Positions 2,039-26,622 of a DNA stretch of 64,000 nt are shown piece by piece. The translations under genes and the position numbers were made by a program. A model generated the notes under the pieces. The model worked only from the letters and a program-made list of their open reading frames with translations. It had not been told where the DNA came from and did not search any database. Within the stretch, counting starts at the first letter, position 1. Every line of letters starts with the position of its first letter. The stretch is taken from IMG/VR virus record IMGVR_UViG_3300025789_000020; one strand, 5' to 3'. Source of the DNA: a virus.

Positions 2039-5000
2039 ATGGCTGATTTTAAAATAAGTAGAATACGATTTACATGGCGCGGTCCTTGGATAACTGGCAC
2101 AGTCTATGCTAAAGATGACGTAATAAACTATGGCGGAAAATCTTACGTATGTGTCTTAGCCAATACTGCTAGTGCAAATTTTTATACAGATTCAGCCAGT
2201 TGGACTTTATGGTTTGATGGTTACACTTGGAAAGGTGTGTGGGCTGTTGGTACATTATACAACATAGGTGATTACGTAACATATGGCGGTGTAATTTATA
2301 TTTGTACTAGTGGACATACATCAGCTGCCACAACTCTATTAGGCCTTGAAGCAAATCAGTCAAGTTGGATTATCTACGCTCTTGCTGACGAATGGAGCAA
2401 ACATTGGCTAGCAAGTACACGATACAAAAAAGGTGACATTGTTCGATACGGACCAAGTCTATATCGTTGTAATACAGGGCACCAGACAGCCGCAACTCTA
2501 GAAGCAAATCAGTCTTACTGGGATGTTGTAAGCTATAGTGAAGATTGGAAAACAGACTGGGTTACTAGTTATCAATACAAACTAGGCGATGTAGTCCGAT
2601 ACGGCGGTATTGTTTATAAATGTCTAACAGGACATACTAGTGCGCCAACCGTTGCTTCTGGATTAGAACAAGATCAAAGCAAATGGGCAGTTCTACACAG
2701 CGGTATTGATTTTAAAACAAACTGGGCAACGGCAACTCGATATAAAGTAAATGATATTGTTAAGTATGGTGCTGACTTGTGGTTCTGTAATATTCCGCAT
2801 ACATCAACTACAACTTTTAGTACTACAAACTTTTCTTTATATGTACCTGGATTAGAATTTTCTAGTACATGGAGTGTTAGTACATCATACGTAGTAGGTG
2901 ATGTAGTAGTATACGGTGGATATCAGTATATCAGTGCAACTACAAATAACCAAGGTAATGTTCCGTCAACTGATTCAACAGATTGGAAACTATTATCTAA
3001 AAGTTATAACATTCGAGGCGACTACACTGCAACAAATTATAAAGTAGGTGATGTTGTTCGTCGTGATGGACAGCTATATGTTGCTATTGCAGACAACAAC
3101 GGAAATGATCCTACAGATACTTCTGCTTGGCAATTATTAATTTCAGGAGTACAGTGGAGAAATATTTGGGCTACACGATCATCTTATGCTCCAGGCGACA
3201 TCGTAACATTCAACGGTACTGCATATGTTTGTAAACAATTACATTCATCTACAACTAATAATAGTCCGCTAGTTGACAACACTTTTACATCGTTAATGAT
3301 TACTGGAGCTACAGGTACAGGAGCATTGACTACACAGACTGGTTCTATCACAGCAACTAGTGGGGTGAACGTTACAGTTAGTTCTTCATCAGGATTACAT
3401 ATAGGCGAGCCATTTGTGGTAGCAGGAACCGGCGGCGGCGGTCTAACTGCTGGGACTTACTATGTTGGAAATATTATTGACGGATCAACTATTTCACTAT
3501 CAGCAACATATCTTGGAGCACTAGGCACTGCTGATATTTCTTTTAGTGTAGCATCATTAACTGGAACTACATTTACAGCAACACCAAGTATTTCAGGACT
3601 TAGTACTGTAACGTTTCCAACACAGAGCAATGCTCCTTATACTCCTGGCGCTTCGATCATTGTATCAAATACAACACCAACAGGGTATAATGGAAAGTAT
3701 ACAGTAATAGTATGCACAAATACCACAGTTAGTTTTCCTAATTTAACTACAGGATTTACTACAGGTGGTTCTGTACAAAATGCGTCAGTGTATTGGGATA
3801 GATATGCCGCAGGTGATCAGTGGGTTTCAATTCAAAACTACGGTGACATCCCTACATATAATAATAACGCATTAAATTCAGCGTTGCCAACAGGCAACAC
3901 TGCAATTTCAATTGGAACAAAAGGACAACTACTACGTTCAAATGCACAAGTTACTAACGGAATTACTAACAATTCAAATGTTATCCCAGCCTGGAATAAT
4001 TTTGGCATCATTGGTAAAGTTTATTATGTTGCTATGAATGGAGTCGATGCTGTCGGCAATGGAACAACAGTTGACACGCCGTGGGCTAGTGTTGCATATG
4101 CTTGTCAAAATGTCATTGGCCCGGCAACTATTTTTATTAAAACAGGAACTTATTCTGAAATCCTTCCAATTAGTTTACCAGCAGGTGTTGCTATTGTTGG
4201 AGACGAGCTAAGGGGGACTGTAATACAACCAGCGGCTGGATATTCTGGTAGCAACATGTTCTATGTTCGTAATGGTTGCGGTATTAGAAATATGACTTTA
4301 CAAGGACTAGTTGGCGGGTTAACTCCAGCAAACCAATACTTAACTTCTCGTCCAACAGGCGGCGCATTTGTAAGTTTGGATCCAGGTGCTGGCCCGAGCG
4401 ACACTAGTGTACAAATTACTACCAAGTCACCATATTGTCAAAACGTTACAATGTTTGGTACTGGATGCACCGGTGTTAAGATTGATGGTACCCTGCATAA
4501 TGCGGGCAATCGTTCTATTGTTGCTAACGACTTTACTACTATTATCAGTGATGGTATTGGTGCATGGTGTACTGGACCTAGTGCGTTAACTGAATTAGTT
4601 TCAGTGTTTAATTATTACGGACACATTGGATATCTAGCAGAAGCTGGCGGCAAAATCCGTGCAACTAATGGTAACAGTTCATACGGTACATATGGTACAG
4701 TTGCCGAAGGATATGATACTACTGAAGTTCCGTTAGCTGGAACTGTTAACAATCGTAGCCAACAAGCACAAATACAAGCAGCCTTTGCTGGACAAGCAAA
4801 TAATAAAATTCTTAGATTAGAATTTGCTAATGCTGGACAAAACTATACAACAGCAACCTACACATTTAGTGGAGCAGGTATAGGTGCAGTTGCGATTGCT
4901 GATGAATTTAGAGATTTAGGAATTTTTGAAGCACGAATTTCAGGTCCTACTGATATAACAGCTGGCGGTACTGGATATCTAACAGCCGGTAACCAGGCAG

Positions 5001-7948
5001 GTGGCGGCACAACTACGTATGTTACACTTGCATCAAATGATCAAAATACTATCACAAACTATTTTGGTATGAGATTAATTGTTACTTCTGGTACAGGTGT
5101 TGGCCAGTACGGCTATATTCAATACTACAACAGCAGTACAAAAGTTGCGTATATCTGTAGAGAAAGTTTCCCTCAAGTAACTACTACTGGATCTAGCTCA
5201 GCTGGAAACACAATATCTTGTTTATCAACTTCTAGTTTGCAAGTTGGCCAGGGGATTATGTTTGCTCCAAGTACTCAAACTACTGCGGCAGTTTCATCAT
5301 CTTCAGTGGATAATACTATCACACTAAGTAGTACTGCGGGCATGTTTGTTGGTGAGAATATTTCATTTGCAGTTAACCCAACGTACTCGATTATCTTTGC
5401 TGGCGTAAGTCCCGGAACAAGTTATTTTATCTATTCAATTAATGGTAATAAAATCCAGCTATCGACTACATTACCTACTACTGCTGGTGGTACTGGTGGT
5501 ATCCTTGGTATTTCTACATATGCTGGTTCTGCTAACATGATTGTTACTGCACAGGGTGTTATTGGTGGAATTGTCTGGGGAACACCTTATTGGGTATTGA
5601 CTAATAATACTACTTCTAATCAGATTACAATTAGTGCAACTGCTCCAGGAACATTTAATGGAACCAGTAATAGCACACAAACTATTAGCGGAGTCACTAG
5701 TACTGTTGGTATTATTGTTGGCGGTGCAGTCACTGGCCCAGGTGTTCCAGCAGGAACTACTGTATTGACTACTGGTATCAACACAGTTACATTAAGTGCC
5801 GCAACTACTACTAGCCAAACAGCTACTTTCACATTTGCCGGCGTAGTAGTTACAGTAATTACTAGTAACGGAAATTCTTTTATAGGGGCTGTTGGCTTTG
5901 ATAATATTCTTCCAGGCCAACCTATTGCCGCAACACTAGATTCAACTACAGTGTATTCTGTTGAACCTCGAGTAACTTTTTCAAATCCTGGATTTACCAC
6001 AGCTCAACAGTCGTTACCTGCAACTAGTACTTGGAGTGCAATGACTTACGCTTTAGGAACTTTTGTTGCAATTGATCAAACGCAACAAGTTGCATTGTCG
6101 ACCGATGGAAAAAATTGGGTTTCAGCTATATCTCCTCCTACTGCCTTAACTGGCGGCGCAACATGGAATGCTATGAGCTTTGGCCAAGGTTTCTTTGTTG
6201 CTGTCGCAGGAGGCTCAAGTCTAAGTAACATAACTTCGATATCAAATACTGGAGCATCATGGTCTGCTGGTGGTAACATGCCAGTAGCCGCTAACTGGTC
6301 AGCATGTACAGCTGGTAACGGTACATTTGTTGCAGTAGCAAGCGGAAGTACATATTCTGCTACCTCTACAAGCGCAACTTCGTGGTCTAACGGAGGCTCA
6401 TTACCAAGTGCATCTAACTGGACTAGTGTTGCATACGGTTCGATTGGTACTTGGGTAGCAGTATCAAGCGGTAGTGCAAATGCAGCCTATTCTACTACTA
6501 ACGGAAGTTTATGGACTGCATGTACATTGCCAGCAAGTAGTACATGGATATCAGTAGCATGGGGTAACGGCAGATTTGTAGCAATAGATCAAACTAACCA
6601 AGTAGCGTACTCCTTTGACGGTATCACATGGACTTTAAACACTTTACCAACTACACAAACTTGGACTAGTTTAACATATGGACAAGGCTTATTCTTTGCA
6701 GTTGCGACAAACACTAGTGTAGCAGTAACTAGTCAAGATGGCCTATACTGGACTATGCAAACTATGCCAGTTAGTTCTACATGGAGTGTAGTAACATTTG
6801 GTAACCCTACAACACTAGCAGGCGCTGTTACACCAATATGGGCGGCAATTTCTAATGCATCATCAAACGTTGCAGCCAGCATACAAACTGGTGCTCAAGC
6901 TATTGGACGAGTTGTAGTAGCAAGTGGTAAACTTAGTTTAGTAAAATTATATGAACCAGGTAGTGGTTATCAAACAACACCAACAGTTACTATATACGAC
7001 CCTAATGCTACACTAGCGGTAACAACTACCTGTAGAACAGCGACCGGAGTATTAGGTAATCCTACATTCTTGAATAGAGGTAATGGCTATCAAACATCAA
7101 CTACTACAGTTGCAGTCAACGGTAACGGATTTGCAGATATACTACAATCTAGTCAATACTTGTATGTTAGCGGACTATCAGCATCACCTACACCAGGTGC
7201 GGCGTTGACTATTAGTGGTAATGGGCTTTTATATCGAGTGGTAGTTATAACTCCGCTAGGTAATGGAAATTATTATTTTCAAATTGCGGCTAGCTTGACT
7301 ATTAGTCTAGCACCGGCACACGGAACAACAATTAGTATTCGATTAAAATACAGTCAGTGTAGAATTACTGGACACGACTTCTTATATATCGGTACTGGTA
7401 ATAAGGCATTAACAAATTACCCGAACGTTAATCCGTTGAACGCGGCTAGTTATAAACAAATTGCTGAAAACAACAGTGGACGAGTATTCCAAACATCAAC
7501 AGACCAAGACGGTAACTTTAAGGTCGGTAACTTGTTTGCGGTTCAGCAAGCATCTGGTATTGTTACAATTTCAGCTAACCAATTTAGTTTAGCTGGTTTA
7601 ACAAAACTAGTAATTGGCGGATTATCAGCAGGTGCAAACTCTGTAACAATTAACAGTTTTTCAACAGACAGTTATTTTGTTGCAAACAGTGACTCAGTAG
7701 TTCCTACTCAAAAGGCAGTTAAAGCATATCTTGCAAGAAATATTGCTGGTGGTGGTTCTAATGCACAAACTGGAGCTGTTATTGCTGGTACAGTTGGAGT
7801 AGGCGGATCACAGAAAATTTATTCAAGCGTAGGACAACAGATATTAATGAGAGCAACTTTAAATATCAAAGGTCCTAATGCTGGTATTAATGGAGTAATG
7901 CTGGCTCATGCAATATTCGCTAGCAGTTTCACTGGTAATGCGGCTTGA
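2039..7948 (+). CDS. Giant tail fibre/spike protein (1969 aa): 8 CBM5/12-like repeats, pectin-lyase-like beta-helix, beta-propeller
   Basis: SD GAGG. W....Y...D.V.YGG..Y.C...H repeats; YVA.NG.D..G...P W ... KTG.Y.E ... IVGDELR beta-helix start; W...AYG.G.FVA propeller blades. Confidence 0.75.
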   Translation: MADFKISRIRFTWRGPWITGTVYAKDDVINYGGKSYVCVLANTASANFYTDSASWTLWFDGYTWKGVWAVGTLYNIGDYVTYGGVIYICTSGHTSAATTLLGLEANQSSWIIYALADEWSKHWLASTRYKKGDIVRYGPSLYRCNTGHQTAATLEANQSYWDVVSYSEDWKTDWVTSYQYKLGDVVRYGGIVYKCLTGHTSAPTVASGLEQDQSKWAVLHSGIDFKTNWATATRYKVNDIVKYGADLWFCNIPHTSTTTFSTTNFSLYVPGLEFSSTWSVSTSYVVGDVVVYGGYQYISATTNNQGNVPSTDSTDWKLLSKSYNIRGDYTATNYKVGDVVRRDGQLYVAIADNNGNDPTDTSAWQLLISGVQWRNIWATRSSYAPGDIVTFNGTAYVCKQLHSSTTNNSPLVDNTFTSLMITGATGTGALTTQTGSITATSGVNVTVSSSSGLHIGEPFVVAGTGGGGLTAGTYYVGNIIDGSTISLSATYLGALGTADISFSVASLTGTTFTATPSISGLSTVTFPTQSNAPYTPGASIIVSNTTPTGYNGKYTVIVCTNTTVSFPNLTTGFTTGGSVQNASVYWDRYAAGDQWVSIQNYGDIPTYNNNALNSALPTGNTAISIGTKGQLLRSNAQVTNGITNNSNVIPAWNNFGIIGKVYYVAMNGVDAVGNGTTVDTPWASVAYACQNVIGPATIFIKTGTYSEILPISLPAGVAIVGDELRGTVIQPAAGYSGSNMFYVRNGCGIRNMTLQGLVGGLTPANQYLTSRPTGGAFVSLDPGAGPSDTSVQITTKSPYCQNVTMFGTGCTGVKIDGTLHNAGNRSIVANDFTTIISDGIGAWCTGPSALTELVSVFNYYGHIGYLAEAGGKIRATNGNSSYGTYGTVAEGYDTTEVPLAGTVNNRSQQAQIQAAFAGQANNKILRLEFANAGQNYTTATYTFSGAGIGAVAIADEFRDLGIFEARISGPTDITAGGTGYLTAGNQAGGGTTTYVTLASNDQNTITNYFGMRLIVTSGTGVGQYGYIQYYNSSTKVAYICRESFPQVTTTGSSSAGNTISCLSTSSLQVGQGIMFAPSTQTTAAVSSSSVDNTITLSSTAGMFVGENISFAVNPTYSIIFAGVSPGTSYFIYSINGNKIQLSTTLPTTAGGTGGILGISTYAGSANMIVTAQGVIGGIVWGTPYWVLTNNTTSNQITISATAPGTFNGTSNSTQTISGVTSTVGIIVGGAVTGPGVPAGTTVLTTGINTVTLSAATTTSQTATFTFAGVVVTVITSNGNSFIGAVGFDNILPGQPIAATLDSTTVYSVEPRVTFSNPGFTTAQQSLPATSTWSAMTYALGTFVAIDQTQQVALSTDGKNWVSAISPPTALTGGATWNAMSFGQGFFVAVAGGSSLSNITSISNTGASWSAGGNMPVAANWSACTAGNGTFVAVASGSTYSATSTSATSWSNGGSLPSASNWTSVAYGSIGTWVAVSSGSANAAYSTTNGSLWTACTLPASSTWISVAWGNGRFVAIDQTNQVAYSFDGITWTLNTLPTTQTWTSLTYGQGLFFAVATNTSVAVTSQDGLYWTMQTMPVSSTWSVVTFGNPTTLAGAVTPIWAAISNASSNVAASIQTGAQAIGRVVVASGKLSLVKLYEPGSGYQTTPTVTIYDPNATLAVTTTCRTATGVLGNPTFLNRGNGYQTSTTTVAVNGNGFADILQSSQYLYVSGLSASPTPGAALTISGNGLLYRVVVITPLGNGNYYFQIAASLTISLAPAHGTTISIRLKYSQCRITGHDFLYIGTGNKALTNYPNVNPLNAASYKQIAENNSGRVFQTSTDQDGNFKVGNLFAVQQASGIVTISANQFSLAGLTKLVIGGLSAGANSVTINSFSTDSYFVANSDSVVPTQKAVKAYLARNIAGGGSNAQTGAVIAGTVGVGGSQKIYSSVGQQILMRATLNIKGPNAGINGVMLAHAIFASSFTGNAA

Positions 7949-8008: not shown

Positions 8009-11000
8009 ATGGCTGAATTTAAACTAGGTAGAATTAAGTTCGTATGGCAAGGTAATTGGAGCGCATCCACTACCTATGTAAAAGACGACGTGGTACGCTA
8101 TGGCGGCCAAACGTATATGTGTGTCCTTGGACATACTGCAACTTCCAATTTTTATACGGACTTAGCTTCTGGTGATTGGCAAATAGTCAGTGATGGTTCA
8201 ACTTGGACCGGTGCTTGGGTAACTAGCACTTTTTATAAACTACGTGATATAGTTAGTTATGGTGGACGCCTTTATATTTGTAACACTCCGCACACATCTG
8301 CGGCAACTACAATTCTAGGGCTTGAAGCAAATCAAAGTAACTGGGATTTGTATGCCAGTTCTTTCAATTGGGTATCAGCTGGTTGGACTGTTAGTACAAA
8401 ATATAAAGTTAACGATATTGTCAACTACGGTGCTAATACATATATTTGTAATACCGCACACACTTCGGCTAGTACAACAGCACTAGGTCTTGAAAATGAT
8501 ATTTCTAACTGGGATATATGGACTAAAGGATTAGCTTGGACTGGTGCTTGGACTACTTCATATCGTTACAGAGCTAACGATATTGTATTATACGGTGGCA
8601 TTTCTTATGTGTGTAACACAGGGCATACATCTGCGTCTACAGCAACTTTGGGACTTGAAAATGATCAAAGTAAATGGGATTATCTACATAAAGGTATAAC
8701 ATACTTAGGAGCATGGAGTGGTAGTTCTGTTCGATACAAAGCAAACGATGTTGTTAAGTACGGCGCCGACTTGTGGATTTGTGGAACAGCACATACTTCT
8801 TCATCTACTTTTGCAACAGCTAACTGGTCAGTATGGATTGCAGGATTGCAATTTTATAACAGTTGGTCAAACGGCACAACATACCAAAACGGTGACATAG
8901 TAACATACGGTGGATACCAGTATGTATCACTAACTGTTAATACCGGAAGCACCCCATCAGCTACTTCAAGTGATTGGTCAATATTTACAACCGGCTTTAC
9001 TTTGTTAGGCGATTGGGTTAGCGGAACATCATACCAAACAGGTAACGTTGTTCGTCTAGGCGGTTATACTTATGTTGCTACATTAGACAATTCAGTTCAA
9101 ACAGTTACAGCAACAGCTACAACTAATACAACTGCATCAAATACTGGAGCGTTCATTACTGGTACTACAATGACCGCGGCAGGTACTCAGACAGGTACTT
9201 ACAGTGCAGGCATGACTTTAACTGGCGGAGCAGTTGCAGTAGGTACTACTATTACCACAGTTAATACAGCAACAATGGGCAATTCTAGTATTCTAGGACA
9301 GACATTAACAATCAGTGGAACAATTACTGGTACTATCAGTATTGGTATGGTTGTTACAGGCGGCGCAATTACTGCTGGTACATATATTACTGCTGGTAGT
9401 GGAACAAGCTGGACTGTTAACCAAACACAATCTGGAGTCTCATCTATCACTATTACTGGTACAAGTTATACTGTTAGTTCTTCACAATCAGTTTCATCGG
9501 CTAATATTACTGGTAGTATTAATGCTATTACAGTTGGATCAACTGCTAAATTATTACCTAATTTACCATTAGTATTCAGCGGTACAACTTTTGGTAATAT
9601 TGTAGCTAACACAACAACGTACTATGTTGGAACAATCATTAGTCTTACACAGTTTACAGTAAGCACATCATCAGGTGGATTACCATTTACACTAGTAACA
9701 GCTTCCGGCTCAATGACTGGAACAACAAATCCAACCCCTCCATTTACTGGTTACTGGTCAAGATTAAACAGCGGTATTCGTTGGAACCCAACAACACAGA
9801 CTTACTCTGCTATAAGCGGTACTAATGTTATAGGTAGCGGATCTAGTGCAACATTTAACGTTATCGCAAGTAGCACAACGTACACAGTGACCGTTGCTAA
9901 CGGGGGAACCGGTTATGCAAATACTAATACTATCAAGATTTTAGGAACTTCACTAGGTGGAATTAGTCCAGCAAACGATTTATTAATTACTGTTACTAAC
10001 GTATCAGGCGGTGTAATTCAATCAGGCGGAATTTCAACTACTGGTTATGCAGTAAGTTGGGCAACCGCTACTGGATACGTAGCAGGTGATACAGTTACTT
10101 TTGGTTCTAATAGTTATATTTGCGTGGCAGCTCATACCAGTGCAAGCGGAAACAGACCAGATGCAGATGTAACCGGTACCTACTGGAACGTACTAGCAGT
10201 TGGATCAGTGACTAACGTATTGACTACACAAGGCGATACAATTTATTATGGCGGCGCAGGTCCAACACGTTTACCAATTGGTACAGACGGACAAGTACTA
10301 CGCACATCTACAGTTGCTGGACAACTTACCCCTCAATGGGCATACTTTGGCGTTATTAATAATGTAGTGTATGTTGCTCCTACAGGAACTGACGTATTAG
10401 GTAATGGCCAAGGACAAACTCTTGATAAACCATGGCAGACTGTTCGATATGCAGCCTTGCAAGTTGAAAATGGTTACTTAAACACTAGTGCTCAAGCATT
10501 GCTAGCTAAGAACAAACAGTTTATGATGAAAGAAATTACAAACTTCATCATCTATAACTACACTGTTACAATTACAGCCACAACAGGCGGATCTCCAGGC
10601 ACTGGCACTAACAGTACTTTTACTTGTAACTCAACGGCCTACTTGTCATTGTACATGCCAATTGTTTTTAGCGTAACCTCAGTGAACGTTACCGCAGGTG
10701 TTACATATTATATTTCTAACATTGTTGATGCAACACACTTTTCTATCAGTACATCCTACGGTGGAACTACACAGGCGTTAACAGCTACAGGAAATATTGG
10801 ACAAACTGCAACACTAGTTTATAATTCAGCAAAGTGTGAGAGAGATGTTGGATACTTAGTAGATGCCGCTATATTTGATATTGGGCACGGTGGAAATCAA
10901 AAGAATACCTCAGCCGCACAGTCATATTTTAACAGCACCGGCAATCCAATTACTACAAGTTTTGGTTATCAAATTTCACAAAGTGTAACAGCTTATACTT

Positions 11001-14000
11001 ACTTGAAGAACTCATTGTTTGCCGCAGTGTTAGGTAATACTGCTCCTAGTAGCAACTATCAAACATTGAATGGTATTAGTTCAGGCAACCAAGCAAAACA
11101 AATCATTGATGTTAGTTTAACAGCTGAAACAGGTTCATTGACTGCTGTACAAACCAATTTAAGCATTGTTACAAATGCTTTAACAGCAAGTTCTGGCGTT
11201 GTACTAACAGGAGTTGTGATTGCAGGCACTTCTGGACAATTGACAGTTCCAGCCGGTACATACACTGTTGGCGCTAGTATTTTAGTAACAGGTACCAATA
11301 CTGGTACTGGTACTATTAGTAGTAATACCATATATTATATTATGACAGGTGGTACTAATGTATCATCTATTCAAGTAACAAATAGTTATGCTAATGCTAC
11401 ATCTAGTCCAGCAGTTGCAGGTACTGTAACTGCCGCTGGAACAACTACTGGTTTAACTTTTACATTCTTCCCTGGAGTAACAGTTGCAGCCGCTCAATTA
11501 CCACAAACAAGCATTATGGTTAAAACTGGTAATTACAGTGAAATACTTCCAATTGTAGTTCCATCTAATACTGCTATTGTAGGCGATGAACTTCGTGGTA
11601 CAGTAATTCAGCCAGCTGGTGCAGTAGCTAATTTAGTTAATGATAAACCTAAATCAGTGTTGGCATTAACACGTACAAAAGCATTGTTAAGTAATCTAGT
11701 TACAAATACATCAATTACTCCAACAAGCGGTAACACTGCAAGCCAAGTAACTAGCCTTCCAGCTGGTGATACTGGTAGCACTGCTGCCGCAAATACTGTG
11801 ATTAATAGTACAGCGTTAATATCTAACATCTTTACTAACGGTTTAGCAGTTGCGCCAACTTATACATTTACTAATCCAACAAACTATAATACTAGTTTCT
11901 TAGTTGGTTACGGTGATGCTAAAGCACAGATTGTACAAAACTACAATTTTATTAAAGCACAAATTAGCCAATACATTTACAATAACTATCTAAGTGTTTA
12001 TAACGCAATTAACGTGGCAAACTGCCAACGTGACGTTGGTTACATCTTAGATGCGTTACAGTACGATATGACTTATGGTACTAACATGCAGACTAACATT
12101 GCTGGTAGTGCTTATTATTCATATGGTGTGTTAACTGAAGCCGCAACAGAAAAAGTTGCAACTATTGCCGCATACACTCAATTAAAATCAATCATTGGTC
12201 AAGTAGCAACAGCAACATTAGTAACTGCACAAACAGCAACTAATGCAAGTATTACTGGTTATACTATTGGTACAGCCTTGTATGTAAGCTCAACAGTTTC
12301 TGGAACAATTCAAGTCGGGCAAGTGATTACTGGCGCAGGTATTGCATCTAACACAATTGTTACTGCATATAACTCAGTTAGTTCTAACTGGACTATTAGT
12401 ATTAGCCAAACAGTTGGCTCTATTGGTTCACCGATAGCAATTACTGGAGCATATCCAACACAAGTACAAACAGGTACTGCTGGATCGGCAAATGCCGCAA
12501 TATATGCTCAAGCTAGAATTCAAAACATTATTGACTGGATTACTAACAATGCGCAAACAACTACAGTTGTAACTACTACAGGAAGTTCAATTGGACCTTC
12601 TAGTACTACATTAACTATTGGTACACTAGTAAGTGGAACAATTGCTGTAGGACAACTAGTAACTGGTACAGGTGTTGCACCTGGAACTTATATCACTGCC
12701 AACATTAGCGGTAGCGGTAATGGATCTACATGGACTGTAAGTGTTAGCCAGACAGTGGCTAGCAGTGCTATCGGGATGCAAAGTTCATTTACTCCAAGCG
12801 ATGCAGGTACCGTGGGACTAAGCAGTGCTAGTTTACAAACAGCGTTTAACGCATTGGTTGCTAAGAAAACAGAAATTCAAAGTGATACAACAGTTTGGGT
12901 ACAAAAGTATTTCCAATCATTGAACTTCAATACTGCAACTTGTTATAGAGATGCTGGTTATATTGTTGATGCACTATGTTATGACCTAGTGTTAGGAACT
13001 AACTTTAACAGTATTATTGTCGGTAAGTCTTATTATCGTGCAATTACTAGTGCGCAAACAGTATTATTAAATCAAACACAAGCAGAAATTGGAGCAATTG
13101 GATTTATTGGCTACAAGGCAAAATTAATTGCAGCCAGCGGTTCAGCCGCACAAGCAAGTGTGATGATAGATGATATTATTGCTACTATTAACGGACAAGT
13201 AACTACTACTGCAACTGCATTTAATTCTTCAGGTAATGTAATTACACTTGCTACAACAGTTGGTGTTTACGTTGGAATGCCAGTAGTGTTTACATCTGGA
13301 AGTCAAGGTGGTACTCAGCAAAATCAAACATACTGGGTATTAACTGTTAATAATTCAACTAATCAGATTACAATCACAGCTACCTACGCAAGTGCAAGCA
13401 CATTTACATTAACAACTGCGGCTTCTACAAACGTATCAGTTACTATTGGTGCTAACGTACAAACACACGGTACTTTAACATACAACAATACGTTAAGTAC
13501 AATTAATGGTGCAGAAATTATTAGAGCTAATATTAATTTCTTAGCTTATGAGTCAGCCGCTTATATTACTGCAAGCTATGGTGGAACAGTATCTGGTACA
13601 AATAGTACTGGAAATCTTATCACAACTACTGGCAATCATAATTTTGTTGCAGGCGATCCTGTTACATTTACAGGTACTGTTGGAATTAGTAACATCGTTG
13701 CAGGAACTCAATACTATGTATTAGCCGCTGGATTAACCGCTACATCGTTTGCTATTACTGCAACACAATTTAGCCTAACTCCAGTACAAATAACAACCGC
13801 AACACTTGGTAGTTTAACAGTTAGTTATTCTTATAACTTAGCTAAGTGCGTTAGAGATACAACATCATACTTAAATGCAATTATCTATGATTTAAACTTT
13901 ACTGGTAATTATAAATCATTACGTGCCGCACAACTGTATAATAATGCAGTCGGTGGATCAGTAACACAAAACATGTTCTTGTTACGTAACGGTACAGGTC

Positions 14001-17000
14001 TACGAAATATGACTATGACTGGATTGACTGGAACACTAGGTCCTGCAAATGCGTTCGGTACAAAACGTCCAACAGCAGGTGCTTACAGTTCGTTAGATAC
14101 AGGTTTTGGACCAAACGATAGCAATGTATGGATTTATGCTCGTAGCCCATACACACAAAACTGTACAATGTTTGGTTATGGTTGCGTAGGTATGAAAATT
14201 GACGGATCACTACATGCCGGTGGTAACCGTTCTATTGTTGCTAACGACTATACAACTATTCTAAGTGACGGTATTGGTGTATGGTGTACAGGTTCAAGTT
14301 CATTAACTGAGCTAGTTTCTGTGTTCTGTTACTACAGTTATGCTGGTTACCTAGCAGAGCTAGGTGGACGTATGCGTGCCACAAACGGTAACAGTTCATA
14401 TGGTACGTATGGTACATTAGCTGAAGGCGGTGATACTTATGAAGTTCCGGTGACAGCCGCTATCAATAACCGGTCTAGTCAAGCAACAGTTACTAACGTG
14501 TTTACAGATAGTACAAATGCAATCTACCGATTTGAATTCTTCAATGCTGGATCAGGTTATAACTCAGCCACATGGTCGATTGGCGGTACTGGTTATAATG
14601 CCGCAGTTGTTGCTAATGAATTCCGTGATAATGCAGTGTTTGAAGTTCGCCCATTAACAGGCGGCGCAAACTATGTTACACAGTCAAACGTAGCTCAGGC
14701 TGGTACACTATACCAGATCAACTTAGCCGCAACAGACAGTGCTATTAGTGCAGCCTACGTTGGTATGCGAATTAACTTAACTGGTGGTACCGGTAACGGA
14801 CAAACTGGTTATATTGTTAATTACAATTCAGGTACTAAATTAGCAAACGTTGCTAAAGAAAGTTTTGTTCCTATAACATTAACTTTATGCTCTACATCAA
14901 CATTTACTACATCTTCTAATACAAATACATTGTATGCGAACATGCCAATATATTTTAGTGGGTCAAGTACCTTTGGTGGCAATAACATTACTCCACTTAC
15001 TACAGTCTACTGGGTGATTGGTGCAAGTTTATCTAGCGGCGGTACAACATTCTCAGTGGCAGCAAGTAGCGGAAGTTCAACACCTGTAGTACTAACAGCA
15101 GGTAGTGGTACTATGCTAGTTAATGCCGCTGGGTGGGACCATGTTGTTCCTGGTACAGTTAACGCTACAAACTTAGACTTAACAACTACATACATCATTG
15201 AGCCAAGAGTAACAGCTAGTGCTCCTGGATTTACTCCAAGCCTTGGAACTCAAGTGGTTAATGCCGCTGGTTGGGCTGATGTTGCATACGGTGATACTAA
15301 CGTTACATATAACTCTGTATCTGGTACAATTGGATTAGGTACTGGTACATTAAGTAGTGGTACTGGAGCAACATTTACTGTTGTTCGTACAGGAGTTGCA
15401 TATGCTGTAACTATTGCTACTGGTGGTACATTATATACTATTGGTAATACTATAACACTTCCTGGCACAAGTTTGGGCGGTGTAAGTACAACTAACGATA
15501 TTACTATTATCGTTACAAATATAAACACTACTACTGGTGCTATTACTAACTTTACATATACTGGGGTAGGATCAGGTGGGTACTATGTTGCAATTACTTC
15601 TAACGGTAATGCAACACAGTACAGTGCTAACGGTACAACATGGACTGCAGGTGGTACATTATCATCTAGCACAACATGGACAGCTATTGCTTATGGCGGA
15701 GGCACATGGGTTGCTATTGCTAAAGGCGGAACACTTTCAAACTACGCAACGACTCCATTAACATGGACTGCAAGTAGTGCAATGCCTGCTACTGCAAACT
15801 GGAGTGCTATTGCTTACGGTAATGGTAGATTTATGGCAGTTGCATCAGGCAGTGCAAACGCAGCCTATAGTACCAACGGTCAAAACTGGACAAATACTAA
15901 CGCATTGCCATCTAGTTCTACTTGGAACGGTGTAGCATATGGTGGTACAATTTGGGTAGCTATTGCAGGCGGTGTTTCTGGTTCAACAGTAGCCGCTTCG
16001 AGTGCAGATGGTACAACATGGACTGCTAGAACACTTCCAAGTTCACAAAACTGGACTAGTGTATCATTTGGTAAAAACATATTTGTAGCAATTGCGGCTT
16101 CAACAACTGCTACTGCTTACAGTATTGATGGTATTACATGGAAGAGTTCAGGTGCAGGTATGGCTGTTAGCCTACCATGGAGCAAAGTTCGTTATGGTCA
16201 AGGTCTATTCTTGGCAGCACCAGCTTCACAAAACCAAACTATTACAGCAACATCTAGTACTAGTGCAACATTTGCAGGTTATATTAGTGCTGTAACAGGT
16301 ATAAGCGGAACAACTGGTACAGTATTAACAGTAACTGGTTCAGTAGTTGGTACAATTGCAGTTGGTATGAACCTAAGCGGTGGTGGTACACAAAATGGAA
16401 CTTACATTGTTTCAACAGGTACTGGATCAGGTGGTACTGGTACTTACAACGTGAGCATTGCTAACAACGTTGGTACAACTGGATCTCCAGCATCATTTAC
16501 AGGTGTAAACAATTTAATTACAGTAAGTTCAACTACTGGTATTGTTGCAGGTGAAACATTCATTCCCACAGCAGTTACACAAACTCCTACAGCTACAGCT
16601 ACAACAAACGCTACAGCTACAATGACTAGCTCAAGCATTGCTGTAACTACAGGTATTTTAACAGTTGGTACACTATCAACTGGTACAATATATGTTGGTA
16701 TGGTGTTAACTGGCGGTAGTATTGCAGCCGGAGTATATATTACTGCTAACATTAGTGGTACCGGTAACGGGTCAACATGGCAGACTAACACAACTACTGC
16801 ACAGTCTAGTACAACAATTACTGGTACATTAAGTTCAATTACAGTTTCTAGTACTGCTGGATTAGTACCAGGTGAAAGTTTTGTGTCTACATCAAGTACA
16901 CAGTCTACTTCGGTAGTATCAACTGCGGCTTCTAGTGCAAACATTACACTAGCAAACTCAACCGGTATTGCTGTTGGTGAACCAATTGTGTTTACAGCCG

Positions 17001-20000
17001 CAACATTTAACCCTGTATTGCTAGCTGCCGCAACTGGAACTAACTTATTAACAGTAAGTAGCACAAGTAATTTAGTTGTAAATCAATCTATTGTCTTTAC
17101 AGCAGTTACACAAGGTACATCAGCAACAGCTACAACATCAGCTACTGCTACTATGACAGGTAGCACGATTGGTGGAACTGGTGTACTAACAGTTGGCACA
17201 CTAACAGCAGGCACTATATCAGTTGGTATGGTGTTAACTGGTGGTAGCATTGGGTCAAACGTGTACATTACTGCTAACTTATTAGGTAGTGGTAGTGGAT
17301 CAACATGGCAAACTAGTACAACTACACCACAAACTAGTACTACAATTACAGGAACATTAAGTTCAGTAACAGTTGGTTCTACAACTGGCATGGTTGTTGG
17401 CGAAACATTTAACGCTGTAGCAGTTACAGCTTCTACAACAGCTACTCAAACAACTACAACAAGTGCTACAATGCTTAACAGCAGTATCACTAGTGGTATT
17501 TTAACAGTTGGTACTGTATCAAGCGGTATTGTTACAATTGGTATGGCACTAAGTGGATCTGGTGTAACAGCTGGAGCATACATTGTTGCTAACATCAGCG
17601 GTAACGGTACTAGTGCTGGTAGTCAATGGGCTGTAAGTTCTGTACAAACAACAAACGTTAGTACAACAACTATTACTGGTACAAGTTATGTTGTAACTGT
17701 AGCTAGCAATAGTAATATGGTTGTCGGTGAATCATTTGCTACAGGATCATCTGGCGCATTTGGTAACTTAGCTAACAGTGCAACTTACTATATTTTAACA
17801 ATTAACAGTACATATATTACAATCAGTTCTACTCCAGGTGGTGCACCTTTTGTATTAACCAATGCAACTGGTACAGTTACAATTACAGCTGGTGCGGCAT
17901 TAGGCGGATTAACTAGCGGAAGCACATACTATATCTTAACAATCCCAACTTCAAGTACAGTTACATTAGGTTCTAACTTTGGTACAAACCCAGTAAGTTT
18001 AATTAACGGTGTAGGTAACTGGACTGTAACAACTGGACAAACATTTAGTTCTGTTACAGCTGGTGTAACTTATTACATAACTCAAGTTAATAGCGGTAGT
18101 AGCACTATCCAAATTTCTGCTACTGTTGGCGGCTCAACTCTAAACTTAACTACTGCGGCTGCAGGAGCATGGACTTCTGTTGCTGGCGGAGTTTTAGGCG
18201 GTATTGTTTCCGCTACCCAAACTTATTATGTATTATCTAACAATACAGGTACTAACGTAATTACTGTAGCTACCAGCTATAACGGTTCAGCAGTAACATG
18301 GGTACTAGGTGGTGGTTCATGGGCCGCAAGTGCTGGTGTAAGTTTAGGTGGTCCTGTAGCAACAGTCGGTCAAGTAACCACAGTTGCCGCAGGAACTGGT
18401 GTAATTACTACAACACAAACTGTATCAGCTCTAGGTATTAGTGTTGGTTCTATGATTTACTTCACTAACGGTACTGGTACAGTGTTTGGCGGACCAACTG
18501 CTAACACAATTTACTATGTAAACTCTGCAAGCACTAATAGTGTAACAGTAGCTACATACTCAGGCGGCGCTGGAACTGGAACAGCTTATACAACATGGGC
18601 TGGCGGTTCAGGTACTATGAATATTAACGTTGTTAGCACTGGTCTAGTAACAGGTATTCCATACTATATCTTAACAGTTGGTTCTGGATATGTTACAGTT
18701 GGTTCAAGTTTTGGCGGTGCTCCGATTCCATTAACTTCAAGCACTGGTGATTCTTGGTCTACAGCATGTGGTACAATATTTGGCGGGTTAGTATCAACTA
18801 GCACATATTATATCCAACAGGTATTCTCTGGAACTAGTCAGCTACAAGTTAGCCAGACATTAACTGGAGCATCGTATACATTGACAAGTGGTGCAGGATC
18901 TTGGACTTCGACAGCAGGTGCCGCAACACAGATATCTACGTCAAATGACGGTATTAATTGGGTTGCACAAAACTTAACGTCAGTAGCTTCATGGCCTGCA
19001 ATTGCATTTGGCAATCCAAGTTCAACACCGTTGTGGGTTGCATGCTCATTGAATACTGCAATATTCAATACAGTTGTTACTGGTGCTACTGCAACACTAC
19101 GTTGTAAAGTAAGTGCAGGTGCAATTAGTGAATATCGTATGATAGAGCCAGGTAGCGGATATCTAAATTTACCATCAATTACTATAGTTGATCCTAACCA
19201 AACTAGTAGTGCTACACAAAATCCTCGAATTGGTATAGGCGCACTGGCAAATCCGATGTGGACTAACAGAGGATTGCAGTATGCAACTGGTACTGCTACA
19301 GTTACAGGTAATGGTTATGCTGATGAATATCAGACTACATCTTATATTAACGTATCAGGATTATATACTACACCTACAGCTGGCGCAAATATTCAAATTG
19401 CAGGTAACGGAAGTTACTATAAATTAGTACAAGTTACTAACTTATTAGGAACTGGTCCCGGACTTGCACCGTATACTGCGATTTTCCAAATTAGTCCAGC
19501 ATTTATTTCTGCTAATGCACCGGTGCATGGATCAGCAATGACGCTGAAATTGAAATATAGCCAAGTACGTTTAACAGGACATGACTTCTTAAGTATCGGT
19601 ACTGGTAATCAAACTACAACGAACTACCCAGGTACACCGTTACAAGCACCACAACCAACCCTACAAACTGTAGGAAATGGCGGCGGTCGAGTGTTCTATA
19701 CAAGTACTGACCAGGACGGTAACTTCCAAGTTGGTACATTATTCAGTGTTCAACAGGCAACTGGTGTAGCAAGTATTAACGCTGATGCGTTTAACTTGGC
19801 AGGATTGAACTCATTGACCCTGGGTTCTATATCGTTAGGTTCTAGTAATGCAACTATTACTCAGTTCTCAACAGACCCGTACTTTACAGCCAATAGTGAC
19901 AACATTGTGCCAACACAAAAAGCTATTAAATCATACATTAGTAGCCAAATTGGTGGTGGTTCTAGTGCTTTGAACGTAAATACACTTACAGCAGGTGTAA

Positions 20001-20131
20001 TTTATATCGCAGGAAACTCAATTTCAACTTCAACACAAGTTCAAATTTTAGTACCTGCAACTATGAATTTCACCGGAGCAAATGCAGGTATCAACGGGAT
20101 ACCGCTAGCAATGAACTTTTTATTACAATAA
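8009..20131 (+). CDS. Giant tail fibre/spike protein (4040 aa), paralogue of the 1969-aa protein with large insertions
   Basis: SD GGAG. Collinear conserved blocks shared with the 1969-aa protein (MA.FK..RI.F.W, IVGDELRGTVIQP, RATNGNSSYGTYGT, TGHDFL.IGTGN, TSTDQDGNF.VG, VPTQKA). Confidence 0.8.
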   Translation: MAEFKLGRIKFVWQGNWSASTTYVKDDVVRYGGQTYMCVLGHTATSNFYTDLASGDWQIVSDGSTWTGAWVTSTFYKLRDIVSYGGRLYICNTPHTSAATTILGLEANQSNWDLYASSFNWVSAGWTVSTKYKVNDIVNYGANTYICNTAHTSASTTALGLENDISNWDIWTKGLAWTGAWTTSYRYRANDIVLYGGISYVCNTGHTSASTATLGLENDQSKWDYLHKGITYLGAWSGSSVRYKANDVVKYGADLWICGTAHTSSSTFATANWSVWIAGLQFYNSWSNGTTYQNGDIVTYGGYQYVSLTVNTGSTPSATSSDWSIFTTGFTLLGDWVSGTSYQTGNVVRLGGYTYVATLDNSVQTVTATATTNTTASNTGAFITGTTMTAAGTQTGTYSAGMTLTGGAVAVGTTITTVNTATMGNSSILGQTLTISGTITGTISIGMVVTGGAITAGTYITAGSGTSWTVNQTQSGVSSITITGTSYTVSSSQSVSSANITGSINAITVGSTAKLLPNLPLVFSGTTFGNIVANTTTYYVGTIISLTQFTVSTSSGGLPFTLVTASGSMTGTTNPTPPFTGYWSRLNSGIRWNPTTQTYSAISGTNVIGSGSSATFNVIASSTTYTVTVANGGTGYANTNTIKILGTSLGGISPANDLLITVTNVSGGVIQSGGISTTGYAVSWATATGYVAGDTVTFGSNSYICVAAHTSASGNRPDADVTGTYWNVLAVGSVTNVLTTQGDTIYYGGAGPTRLPIGTDGQVLRTSTVAGQLTPQWAYFGVINNVVYVAPTGTDVLGNGQGQTLDKPWQTVRYAALQVENGYLNTSAQALLAKNKQFMMKEITNFIIYNYTVTITATTGGSPGTGTNSTFTCNSTAYLSLYMPIVFSVTSVNVTAGVTYYISNIVDATHFSISTSYGGTTQALTATGNIGQTATLVYNSAKCERDVGYLVDAAIFDIGHGGNQKNTSAAQSYFNSTGNPITTSFGYQISQSVTAYTYLKNSLFAAVLGNTAPSSNYQTLNGISSGNQAKQIIDVSLTAETGSLTAVQTNLSIVTNALTASSGVVLTGVVIAGTSGQLTVPAGTYTVGASILVTGTNTGTGTISSNTIYYIMTGGTNVSSIQVTNSYANATSSPAVAGTVTAAGTTTGLTFTFFPGVTVAAAQLPQTSIMVKTGNYSEILPIVVPSNTAIVGDELRGTVIQPAGAVANLVNDKPKSVLALTRTKALLSNLVTNTSITPTSGNTASQVTSLPAGDTGSTAAANTVINSTALISNIFTNGLAVAPTYTFTNPTNYNTSFLVGYGDAKAQIVQNYNFIKAQISQYIYNNYLSVYNAINVANCQRDVGYILDALQYDMTYGTNMQTNIAGSAYYSYGVLTEAATEKVATIAAYTQLKSIIGQVATATLVTAQTATNASITGYTIGTALYVSSTVSGTIQVGQVITGAGIASNTIVTAYNSVSSNWTISISQTVGSIGSPIAITGAYPTQVQTGTAGSANAAIYAQARIQNIIDWITNNAQTTTVVTTTGSSIGPSSTTLTIGTLVSGTIAVGQLVTGTGVAPGTYITANISGSGNGSTWTVSVSQTVASSAIGMQSSFTPSDAGTVGLSSASLQTAFNALVAKKTEIQSDTTVWVQKYFQSLNFNTATCYRDAGYIVDALCYDLVLGTNFNSIIVGKSYYRAITSAQTVLLNQTQAEIGAIGFIGYKAKLIAASGSAAQASVMIDDIIATINGQVTTTATAFNSSGNVITLATTVGVYVGMPVVFTSGSQGGTQQNQTYWVLTVNNSTNQITITATYASASTFTLTTAASTNVSVTIGANVQTHGTLTYNNTLSTINGAEIIRANINFLAYESAAYITASYGGTVSGTNSTGNLITTTGNHNFVAGDPVTFTGTVGISNIVAGTQYYVLAAGLTATSFAITATQFSLTPVQITTATLGSLTVSYSYNLAKCVRDTTSYLNAIIYDLNFTGNYKSLRAAQLYNNAVGGSVTQNMFLLRNGTGLRNMTMTGLTGTLGPANAFGTKRPTAGAYSSLDTGFGPNDSNVWIYARSPYTQNCTMFGYGCVGMKIDGSLHAGGNRSIVANDYTTILSDGIGVWCTGSSSLTELVSVFCYYSYAGYLAELGGRMRATNGNSSYGTYGTLAEGGDTYEVPVTAAINNRSSQATVTNVFTDSTNAIYRFEFFNAGSGYNSATWSIGGTGYNAAVVANEFRDNAVFEVRPLTGGANYVTQSNVAQAGTLYQINLAATDSAISAAYVGMRINLTGGTGNGQTGYIVNYNSGTKLANVAKESFVPITLTLCSTSTFTTSSNTNTLYANMPIYFSGSSTFGGNNITPLTTVYWVIGASLSSGGTTFSVAASSGSSTPVVLTAGSGTMLVNAAGWDHVVPGTVNATNLDLTTTYIIEPRVTASAPGFTPSLGTQVVNAAGWADVAYGDTNVTYNSVSGTIGLGTGTLSSGTGATFTVVRTGVAYAVTIATGGTLYTIGNTITLPGTSLGGVSTTNDITIIVTNINTTTGAITNFTYTGVGSGGYYVAITSNGNATQYSANGTTWTAGGTLSSSTTWTAIAYGGGTWVAIAKGGTLSNYATTPLTWTASSAMPATANWSAIAYGNGRFMAVASGSANAAYSTNGQNWTNTNALPSSSTWNGVAYGGTIWVAIAGGVSGSTVAASSADGTTWTARTLPSSQNWTSVSFGKNIFVAIAASTTATAYSIDGITWKSSGAGMAVSLPWSKVRYGQGLFLAAPASQNQTITATSSTSATFAGYISAVTGISGTTGTVLTVTGSVVGTIAVGMNLSGGGTQNGTYIVSTGTGSGGTGTYNVSIANNVGTTGSPASFTGVNNLITVSSTTGIVAGETFIPTAVTQTPTATATTNATATMTSSSIAVTTGILTVGTLSTGTIYVGMVLTGGSIAAGVYITANISGTGNGSTWQTNTTTAQSSTTITGTLSSITVSSTAGLVPGESFVSTSSTQSTSVVSTAASSANITLANSTGIAVGEPIVFTAATFNPVLLAAATGTNLLTVSSTSNLVVNQSIVFTAVTQGTSATATTSATATMTGSTIGGTGVLTVGTLTAGTISVGMVLTGGSIGSNVYITANLLGSGSGSTWQTSTTTPQTSTTITGTLSSVTVGSTTGMVVGETFNAVAVTASTTATQTTTTSATMLNSSITSGILTVGTVSSGIVTIGMALSGSGVTAGAYIVANISGNGTSAGSQWAVSSVQTTNVSTTTITGTSYVVTVASNSNMVVGESFATGSSGAFGNLANSATYYILTINSTYITISSTPGGAPFVLTNATGTVTITAGAALGGLTSGSTYYILTIPTSSTVTLGSNFGTNPVSLINGVGNWTVTTGQTFSSVTAGVTYYITQVNSGSSTIQISATVGGSTLNLTTAAAGAWTSVAGGVLGGIVSATQTYYVLSNNTGTNVITVATSYNGSAVTWVLGGGSWAASAGVSLGGPVATVGQVTTVAAGTGVITTTQTVSALGISVGSMIYFTNGTGTVFGGPTANTIYYVNSASTNSVTVATYSGGAGTGTAYTTWAGGSGTMNINVVSTGLVTGIPYYILTVGSGYVTVGSSFGGAPIPLTSSTGDSWSTACGTIFGGLVSTSTYYIQQVFSGTSQLQVSQTLTGASYTLTSGAGSWTSTAGAATQISTSNDGINWVAQNLTSVASWPAIAFGNPSSTPLWVACSLNTAIFNTVVTGATATLRCKVSAGAISEYRMIEPGSGYLNLPSITIVDPNQTSSATQNPRIGIGALANPMWTNRGLQYATGTATVTGNGYADEYQTTSYINVSGLYTTPTAGANIQIAGNGSYYKLVQVTNLLGTGPGLAPYTAIFQISPAFISANAPVHGSAMTLKLKYSQVRLTGHDFLSIGTGNQTTTNYPGTPLQAPQPTLQTVGNGGGRVFYTSTDQDGNFQVGTLFSVQQATGVASINADAFNLAGLNSLTLGSISLGSSNATITQFSTDPYFTANSDNIVPTQKAIKSYISSQIGGGSSALNVNTLTAGVIYIAGNSISTSTQVQILVPATMNFTGANAGINGIPLAMNFLLQ

Positions 20132-20832: not shown

Positions 20833-21588
20833 ATGTCAAATTTAAGAGACTTGCTTCCTTCAAGTGCGCCTAATACAGCCTACAAACAGCAGGTGATTAG
20901 TGTGTATAACACTAACATTGACTCTGTTTCAAATGGCGGTGCATGCTGTTGCTGGGTAGTGCCAACTGGCGTTACTTGGGCAGTATTTGAAACATGGAGC
21001 GGCGGCGGAGACGGTGCAGGTGCATGTTGTTGTATGGGTCCGTATTGGGGACCTGGAGGCGGCAACTACAGTAAAAAATATCTACCAGTAACATCTGGCA
21101 CTTACTTTATCCTATGCGGCGGTGGCTCAGGCTGTTGCGCACAGCAGTGTTGTGGTACATGTGGATTATCAAGTTTCGCACTTTGCGCAAACAACACAAA
21201 CGTAGCATATTCATGCGGCGGATACATGGGATGTGTATTGTGTTTTAGAACATACATGGGCTGTACTGGTATTTGTATACCTAGTTGCTCATATGGTTGC
21301 TACTCATTAAACTACGATCTTACAATGCCTTCAGTATCAAGCCCAAACAAAGTAAGTAATTACTGCTGGAGTAACCAATGGGAATGGTCACATGGAGTTT
21401 CAAAATACGGTAATTACATTCGTCAAGGTATGGATTACTGCTTAGTTAGTTTAACAATTTCAGGCCGCAATATGATGTGCGGCGCAAAATGGCCAGGCGG
21501 CGCAGGTAATAGCGCAACTGCTTGCGGCGGCGGATGCTGTTGGGGTGGTTGGGGTGCAGGCGGCTTAGCCATGGTAACATACGGATAA
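20833..21588 (+). CDS. Cys/Gly-rich putative fibre-tip adhesin, paralogue 1 (26 Cys)
   Basis: W.VP.G...FE.W.GGG.G.GACCC ... WPGG ... CCWGGWG.GGL..VTY. Confidence 0.55.
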   Translation: MSNLRDLLPSSAPNTAYKQQVISVYNTNIDSVSNGGACCCWVVPTGVTWAVFETWSGGGDGAGACCCMGPYWGPGGGNYSKKYLPVTSGTYFILCGGGSGCCAQQCCGTCGLSSFALCANNTNVAYSCGGYMGCVLCFRTYMGCTGICIPSCSYGCYSLNYDLTMPSVSSPNKVSNYCWSNQWEWSHGVSKYGNYIRQGMDYCLVSLTISGRNMMCGAKWPGGAGNSATACGGGCCWGGWGAGGLAMVTYG

Positions 21589-21601
21589 AAAGGATATAAA
21601 A

Positions 21602-22297: not shown

Positions 22298-22315
22298 TCT
22301 GGAGAATATTATAAT

Positions 22316-23071: not shown

Positions 23072-23084
23072 GGCGCAAATAACT

Positions 23085-23846: not shown

Positions 23847-23850
23847 AAAA

Positions 23851-24792: not shown

Positions 24793-24820
24793 AAAAAAGC
24801 ACCCTAGGGTGCTTTTTTTT
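24793..24820. terminator. Bidirectional intrinsic terminator
   Basis: AAAAAA-GCACCCTAGGGTGC-TTTTTTTT between convergent operons. Confidence 0.85.
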
Positions 24821-26609: not shown

Positions 26610-26622
26610 AATTAATCCTTGT

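Follow-up and report, generated by a model that had tools for sequence, protein, structure and literature searches.

Phycobiliprotein-like modules in tail-fibre and structural proteins of a T4-like phage as candidate bilin-binding domains

Phycobiliproteins carry a covalently attached bilin at the CXRD motif, according to the account of Rockwell, Martin and Lagarias (2023, PMC10151467), which also describes BBAG-1 and BBAG-3 as proteins that have this motif and attach bilins without a lyase. The same account describes the BBAG-2/photoglobin clade as devoid of the motif and calls the precise origin of phycobiliproteins unclear. For phages, a report from 2024 (PMC11480375) describes the purpose of their tetrapyrrole genes as unknown and names a phytochrome or a BBAG as a suggested acceptor. 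Here we describe six helical modules with a C-x-R-D motif, encoded in a stretch of 64,000 nucleotides (nt) from the IMG/VR virus record IMGVR_UViG_3300025789_000020 (this whole stretch is called the window below), and discuss them as candidate bilin acceptors built into virion proteins. This DNA comes from a T4-like myovirus and corresponds to its structural region, in which the sheath, the tube, the large terminase (TerL), gp32, UvsX and UvsY were recognized with PHROGs and Pfam.

Four of the modules are found in a tail-fibre-like open reading frame (ORF) of 4040 amino acids (aa), P0001. It consists of N-terminal CBM_5_12 repeats (six stretches), a domain shared with a 1969-aa paralogue, P0002, but divided there by two large insertions, and an extended region of beta-rich repeats. 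P0002 likewise starts with CBM_5_12 repeats, and both proteins match the tail-fibre profile phrog_9851 significantly. In the alignment with P0002, insertion 1 covers approximately aa 823-1168 and insertion 2 approximately aa 1205-1987 of P0001, both of them splitting a stretch that is continuous in P0002 (around aa 690-745). The C-x-R-D motif occurs exactly four times in P0001 (aa 943, 1339, 1645 and 1947, that is, nt 10835, 12023, 12941 and 13847), always inside the insertions, and never in P0002, the number expected from composition being 0.0044 per protein; the module profile found no match in P0002 either. A first-pass annotation of the window had reported these four codons with their peptides and had assigned the modules to insertions lacking from the paralogue, and both statements hold. 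The module length of about 100 aa given there has to be revised, as the repeat unit comprises about 140-150 aa (about 145) and six helices, and its list of four modules, correct as far as it went, missed modules 5 and 6 in a second ORF. The features are as follows, with independent E-values (iE) and positions in the module profile.

2039..7948, + strand: 1969-aa paralogue without module (P0002), the uninterrupted reference for the insertion sites; phrog_9851, E 3e-159
8009..20131, + strand: 4040-aa tail-fibre-like ORF (P0001); phrog_9851 tail fiber, E 3.8e-159
10481..10564, + strand: module 1, helices A/B (aa 825-852); profile 15-42, iE 0.024
10805..11170, + strand: module 1, Cys-bearing core with helices E to H (aa 933-1054); profile 41-149, iE 3.2e-21
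11636..11809, + strand: orphan G/H-like half module at the start of insertion 2 (aa 1210-1267); profile 91-148, iE 6.4e-06
11873..12298, + strand: module 2 (aa 1289-1430); iE 5.6e-35
12821..13246, + strand: module 3 (aa 1605-1746), used for the AlphaFold model; iE 3.9e-35
13478..13582, + strand: module 4, helices A/B (aa 1824-1858); profile 8-42, iE 0.081
13820..13951, + strand: module 4, Cys helix and the next helix only (aa 1938-1981); profile 42-85, iE 3.5e-08
34430..41110, + strand: 2226-aa virion structural ORF carrying modules 5 and 6; phrog_5838 virion structural protein
34577..35026, + strand: module 5, Cys105 at codon nt 34742 (AKCLRDTGY); iE 1.4e-17
35099..35428, + strand: module 6, Cys234 at codon nt 35129 (AKCQRDIGF); iE 2.7e-15

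The modules of P0001 differ in completeness. Module 1 (Cys943, peptide AKCERDVGY) is interrupted by a nested beta-rich insert (aa 853-932); module 2 has the peptide ANCQRDVGY around Cys1339; and module 3 (Cys1645, ATCYRDAGY) is the only complete module of this protein without a nested insert. In module 4 (Cys1947, AKCVRDTTSY) a nested beta-rich insert (aa 1859-1937) comes after helices A/B, and the module stops after the helix next to the Cys helix, where the chain directly re-enters the paralogue-type domain. At the start of insertion 2 there is a G/H-like half module (11636-11809), and at its end a half module made of A/B, E and F (13478-13951); the two might pair into one composite globin domain. 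Modules 5 and 6 are complete, uninterrupted and arranged in tandem at the N-terminus of their ORF, and aa 1-357 of this protein would be the easiest fragment of the window to express. The residues C, R, D, D(+14), N(+20) and Y(+30) are kept in all six window modules.

The loop that accommodates insertion 2 (window 11620-11640 and 13950-13975), following the residues ELRGTVIQPA, is a hot spot of insertion. In three relatives, the orthologues of the short paralogue have at this site a beta-rich insert of approximately 170 aa that contains no globin module (L006:1381-1901, L009 and L014).

A word-indexed search with module 2 retrieved ten long hypothetical proteins packed with C-x-R-D modules. 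Profile A1, constructed from 14 modules, was compared with 1.84 billion cluster representatives and matched 1473 proteins at E<=0.001, of which 1079 pass E<=1e-10 and 632 pass E<=1e-30, each representing a cluster at 50% identity; the largest array has 37 modules in one protein of 6382 aa. Modules were present in 161 of 162 collected proteins, yielding 1729 aligned domains, of which 1640 cover the motif region. In these 1640 modules, C is conserved in 95%, R in 95%, D in 99%, D(+14) in 100% and Y(+30) in 98%, at a mean column identity of about 27% in the second profile, A2, an alignment of 51 modules. As 1333 of the 1640 modules have exactly one Cys, an intramodule disulfide is not expected. 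Both poor Cys conservation and disulfide pairing had been named in the first-pass annotation as grounds against a ligand site, and neither is seen in the family. A degenerate DNA motif was found in only seven stretches among 185,579 prokaryote species genomes, all of them on metagenome-bin contigs, and in at least 138 stretches in IMG/VR. No model in Pfam or NCBIfam covers the module, and the structural neighbours in BFVD are annotated as 'tail protein' or 'structural protein' of cyanophages and uncultured phages, without a domain name. The modules form a large, virus-only, unannotated family of tandem repeats.

The 88 of the 1640 modules that have no Cys show how the site changes when this residue is lost. 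Relative to the Cys-containing modules, the frequency of Arg falls from 97% to 53%, of Asp from 100% to 73%, of Tyr(+30) from 99% to 65% and of Thr(+46) from 86% to 41%, with no fall for D(+14) (97%) and N(+20) (83%). Phe, Tyr or Trp takes the place of the Cys in 38 of the 88 modules. The joint loss of Cys, Arg, Asp, Tyr and Thr matches the decay of a whole ligand site accompanied by filling of its cavity, unlike the loss of independent structural residues.

Kinship with phycobiliproteins is indicated by several comparisons. PF00502 is the only Pfam family that recurs among the ten relatives, matching five of them: P0010 scores 25.9 bits (profile 72-154 of 155), above the curated gathering cut-off of 22.2, and the other four score 13.1-19.6 bits, with P0004 reaching the upper value (profile 33-151). 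When modules were taken singly, 5 of 51 matched PF00502, the best with an E-value of 1.9e-5, and it was the sole family matching more than one module. In a comparison of profile A1 with 177,635 PDB sequences, all 31 matches at E<=10 were phycobiliproteins (30 alpha-phycocyanins and one phycoerythrocyanin beta), the best being CpcA (8iml_A, E 9e-4); with A2, 29 of 30 matches were alpha-phycocyanins and one was a pilin (best E 0.006). Both profiles align the module residues Cys-x-Arg-Asp-x-Gly-Tyr with KCARDIGYY of CpcA, around Cys84, and the helix before the Cys site as well as the G-G-[TN] turn after the Cys helix are in register with alpha-phycocyanin. A direct phmmer search of PDB with the 1434-aa module region returned only two antibody chains (E 0.9).

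The AlphaFold (AF2) model of P0001 aa 1592-1745, calculated with A2, has six helices, a pLDDT of 77.6 and a pTM of 0.73. Phycobiliproteins occupy 38 of the 39 rows in the list of Foldseek matches from PDB, with TMq of 0.52-0.63 and E-values of 0.011-0.053 over all 39, and two independent structure aligners place bilin-binding globins ahead of every other helical fold. Model residues 14-139 align with residues 33-164 of the phycobiliprotein chain, with helix order and lengths in agreement from A to H. The predicted model contains the globin-like core (helices A, B, E, F, G and H) and, on helix E, the chromophore-site residues corresponding to Cys84-x-Arg86-Asp87; the N-terminal X-Y helical hairpin that serves alpha/beta pairing is not present in it. 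Since the structural alignment starts at chain residue 33, the module appears to be a globin core without the hairpin, which would not fit into a repeat unit of about 145 aa. The first-pass annotation had likened the motif to the Cys84 site of alpha-phycocyanin in what it considered a short match, and had proposed a comparison of predicted structures. The likeness is borne out, the shortness is not, as PF00502, the PDB profiles and the predicted fold extend it over the whole globin core, and the comparison, done with module 3, yielded a phycobiliprotein-like fold and not the non-globin helical bundle that it had named as a counter-argument. We regard the fold of phycobiliproteins and bilin-binding globins as very probable for the modules, and common ancestry with phycobiliproteins as likely. 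Three independent lines, namely PF00502 matches, PDB profile matches and predicted fold, support the alignment of the module Cys with the bilin-attachment residue Cys84.

These observations suggest the following explanation. The modules would be divergent representatives of the superfamily of bilin-binding globins (phycobiliproteins together with their BBAG paralogues), reduced to a six-helix core and placed, together with nested beta-rich decorations, in two loops of one domain of a giant tail-fibre or baseplate-type protein of a jumbo T4-like myovirus. Inside the infected cell, the module Cys would take up a linear tetrapyrrole (biliverdin or a reduced bilin) supplied either by the host or by a phage heme oxygenase and bilin reductase; the attachment could be autocatalytic, as in BBAGs, or assisted by a lyase. 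The finished virion would then bear pigmented appendages, whose likeliest use would be light-dependent control of adsorption or of baseplate triggering and, as the second choice, photoprotection. Taken as a whole, from the homology and the conserved, coupled site to pigmented and light-gated appendages, this chain of arguments has in our estimation a probability of roughly 0.4.

If bilins are attached, some module-bearing phages may produce them. An adjacent pair of genes for heme oxygenase and a bilin reductase of the FDBR family was identified in 3 of 56 module-bearing IMG/VR records examined: G018 (271 kb, 100% complete), G023 (364 kb, 100%) and G039 (134 kb, 70%). This amounts to two of the three complete records and three of the seven records that are at least 60% complete, the remaining ones being fragments of 12-45%. 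G023 is the nearest complete relative of the window (TerL 64% identical) and has 11 modules in three giant ORFs. The bilin genes are more than 100 kb from the modules in both G018 and G023, and psbA is absent from these two genomes; clustering with heme oxygenase and FDBR in the manner of BBAGs was found neither in them nor among the 42 ORFs of the window. Records of the five closest relatives of the window are 27-60% complete and contain no psbA, NblA or hli; the most complete of these, G001 (60%), has no counterpart of the HSP70 region flanking the G023 bilin genes. Relatives of the G023-type FDBR are encoded in 474 viral contigs. Among the best 80 of these contigs we considered the 17 largest, seven of which have modules, including 5/5 contigs of at least 100 kb, which belong to one clade and so are non-independent. 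Any enrichment in the co-occurrence of modules and bilin genes, scored without a module-free control set, is suggestive only.

In G023, the heme oxygenase-FDBR pair (G023:C1:280000-296000, L168) is found amid genes for ClpS, HSP20, HSP70 and MazG, and the same island has genes for curli CsgG/CsgF, FecR and an autotransporter beta-domain, an unusual accessory set for a phage that hints at a Gram-negative host. In Pelagibacter phage Mosig (L251, record 39650-50525), the fibre gene is 47% identical to the carrier domain of the window fibre, and the site of its bilin genes, 6 kb from the fibre gene, also has a putative ferrochelatase.

Modules are also present in cultured phages. A TBLASTN search of 50,697 cultured phage records with the two-module relative P0009 gave 84 matches, all from cyanophages or marine phages (Synechococcus 64, Cyanophage 13, Prochlorococcus 6, Marine 1), in genes annotated as 'short tail fiber', 'tail protein', 'baseplate wedge' and 'structural'. 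With profile A2, ten modules were found in S-PM2, four in P-HM1, four in P-HM2 and three weak ones in P-SSM4, and none in P-SSM2 or P-SSP7. The P-HM1 modules are located in the gp7 baseplate wedge and in a tail fibre protein, and in S-PM2 a cpeT gene precedes one of the module-bearing giant ORFs by 1.5 kb. In the S-PM2 record (NC_006820, L001), many tRNA genes are annotated at 165928-177267 inside a giant 'short tail fiber' coding sequence under the same locus tag, which looks like an annotation or coordinate problem.

As described by Liu et al. (2019, PMC6628666), P-HM1 and P-HM2 fail to adsorb in the dark, P-SSM2 and P-SSP7 succeed, and the light-dependent adsorption of S-PM2 is independent of photosynthesis. 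The presence of modules fits light-dependent adsorption in five of five phages, the three light-requiring ones having modules and the two dark-adsorbing ones having none. Because P-HM1 and P-HM2 are nearly identical and P-SSP7 is a podovirus, this agreement is a lead and not a test.

A number of observations weigh against bilin-carrying modules. The case for bilin binding is at present one of homology and conservation, and we know of no report of pigmented phage particles. The matches to known families are near the limits of detection: the window modules stay below the PF00502 cut-off (13.3 bits, E 0.08, for the stretch of module 2, and no match for module 3 alone), the E-values of the PDB profile matches are borderline and did not improve with the deeper profile, no Foldseek match reaches E<=0.001, and the C-x-R-D motif may have steered AF2. 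The search for bilin genes proposed in the first-pass annotation was unsuccessful in the window, with no heme oxygenase, FDBR or CpeT family member among its 42 ORFs, and in the five partial genomes of its closest relatives, with no heme oxygenase, FDBR or CpeT there (no match to PF05996, PF06206 or PF01126) and no CpeS-type lyase. The complete genome G052 (284 kb, one module) has no heme oxygenase or reductase. Conversely, no module is present anywhere in the genome of Mosig, although heme oxygenase and FDBR are encoded 6 kb from the fibre genes, and P-SSM2, a phage known to have bilin genes, has no module either. The correlations with bilin genes and with adsorption are small and phylogenetically confounded.

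In the main alternative, the modules would bind no ligand, the phycobiliprotein-type globin being used as a rigid block or spacer in fibres and baseplates, and C-x-R-D, D and Y forming an internal polar network for folding or for packing between modules. The tandem arrays, with as many as 37 modules in one protein and reminiscent of shaft repeats, would agree with such a role, as would the mixing of modules with beta decorations at an insertion hot spot where relatives have module-free beta inserts, and the absence of bilin genes from G052 and from the lineage of the window (42 ORFs and the relatives' partial records). D(+14) and N(+20) are kept even in Cys-less modules, and conservation is therefore partly structural. 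However, structural needs hardly explain why a single Cys is retained in 95% of 1640 modules at so low a mean identity; Cys, Arg, Asp, Tyr and Thr vanish jointly, often with bulky aromatic residues replacing the Cys, as in a decaying ligand pocket; and C-x-R-D is reported as the covalent bilin site in both related families where it was tested (PMC10151467). We consider purely structural modules somewhat unlikely. A variant in which fold and pocket are the same and the chemistry is different, with another tetrapyrrole or cofactor (heme, a corrinoid fragment, a metal) or with a reactive Cys that forms a covalent bond to a host surface molecule or cross-links the fibre, could account for the many conserved polar residues along the Cys helix and for the many module-bearing phages that show no bilin genes. 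It is improbable in our view, as the best sequence and structure matches are bilin-binding members and not heme globins, no conserved His is among the top residues listed for profile columns 41-140, and with one Cys in most modules no cross-link partner residue is indicated.

Convergence appears least probable, a remaining small chance being left for an unrelated helical bundle that shares the short C-x-R-D-x-G-Y sequence and whose AlphaFold model was pulled by this motif. The profile alignments to PDB chains are strongest over just 25-70 residues with marginal E-values, and helical bundles can reach high structural scores (about 13) by chance. Against a chance similarity, the PF00502 alignments in relatives cover profile positions 33-151 and 72-154, which correspond to helices B to H; the helices agree in order and length from A to H; bilin-binding globins outrank other helical folds in both aligners; and both groups have the G-G-[TN] turn behind the Cys helix at equal spacing.

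The phage itself belongs to a lineage for which the closest record is G001 (TerL 92% identical). G001 has 223 kb at an estimated completeness of 60%, and we therefore estimate a jumbo genome of roughly 370 kb for the phage of the window. Among cultured phages, the nearest TerL proteins are those of Pseudomonas phage PA5oct (54%) and Sinorhizobium phage Phosso (51%). The carrier domain of P0001 and P0002 may be a beta-helix, as suggested by its sequence pattern and by a weak DUF1565 match in the relative P0006. An AlphaFold model of this domain (P0002 aa 640-1000) based on a 17-row alignment has a pLDDT of 32.4; the same region gave no match in PDB with phmmer and a single weak match to a surface protein in NCBIfam.

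Other genes around the module-bearing ORFs are noted for completeness. Downstream of P0001, five small tandem ORFs (20833-24783, + strand) match phrog_4205 and phrog_9740 in alternation, and those matching phrog_9740 bear tail-fibre assembly chaperone domains (PF16778), so that the region looks like a cassette of alternative fibre tips and their chaperones. The run of structural genes is broken by a block on the opposite strand (24819-29439, - strand), which consists of a Nol-like carbamoyltransferase and three ORFs without a family and whose possible role is the modification of a sugar or virion component. The fibre gene cluster also includes a subtilase that has a pro-kumamolisin activation domain (32235-33848, + strand), and a TnsA-like endonuclease ORF (51779-52204, + strand) is located between the tail tube and the packaging genes.

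Full-text searches of the literature, supplements aside, did not reveal any account of phage virion proteins with phycobiliprotein-like domains or of a globin-type domain in a fibre insertion. The fold and the C-x-R-D site were already known; the lineage, the architecture and the biological setting are new. The modules are a candidate bilin acceptor encoded by phages themselves, including phages thought to infect non-photosynthetic bacteria. They make testable the purpose of heme oxygenase, bilin reductase and ALA synthase genes in phages, as well as the cause of the light-dependent yet photosynthesis-independent adsorption of cyanophages. A very large virus-only lineage of CXRD globins would add a new branch to the phycobiliprotein tree, and even without any pigment the modules constitute a domain family that is large (1473 clusters at 50% identity) and lacks annotation.

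A more general proposal, which we regard as rather doubtful, is that the baseplates and fibres of many aquatic myoviruses contain photoreceptor or pigment modules that carry bilins, and that phage heme oxygenase, PcyX/PebS/PcyA, AlaS and CpeT serve at least in part for virion chromophorylation. If true, this would be the first virion-borne photoreceptor. It would explain the light-dependent adsorption of S-PM2 and P-HM1/P-HM2 and supply the lacking bilin acceptor in phages of non-photosynthetic hosts, and the viral module family could bear on the origin of phycobiliproteins.

Compared with the known systems, the modules are closest to phycobiliproteins (PF00502, above all alpha-phycocyanin and the bilin-binding domain of the core-membrane linker ApcE, PDB 4xxi), which provide their best sequence and structure matches and share with them the globin-type helices A to H in the predicted model, the Cys-x-Arg-Asp at the start of the E helix (Cys84/Arg86/Asp87) and the G-G-[TN] turn. 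Phycobiliproteins are subunits of 160-180 aa with an X-Y hairpin, whereas the modules are virus-only, occur as tandem arrays or insertions in giant virion proteins, have the additional invariant residues D(+14) and Y(+30), and lack the hairpin, so that no alpha/beta pairing is obvious. BBAG-1 and BBAG-3 of heterotrophic bacteria and some cyanobacteria are distant phycobiliprotein paralogues outside photosynthetic light harvesting, as the modules would be, and their CXRD motif is present in the modules. Heme oxygenase and FDBR are encoded in the same genome as BBAGs, as in some module-bearing phages, and lyase-free attachment is proposed for the modules after their example; BBAGs, however, are single-domain cellular proteins encoded beside the bilin genes, while the modules are parts of virion proteins, with the bilin genes more than 100 kb away where present. 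The bilin-binding globin domains of photocobilins and photoglobins (PDB 8j2y and 8j2w) are fused to B12-binding domains, and the modules are joined to fibres. Among phage tail fibres with decorating insertions (phrog_9851, CBM_5_12), P0001 is a member whose module loop takes other inserts in relatives, and the known decorations are beta-rich carbohydrate-binding or Ig-like domains, whereas the module is a globin-type, putative cofactor domain.

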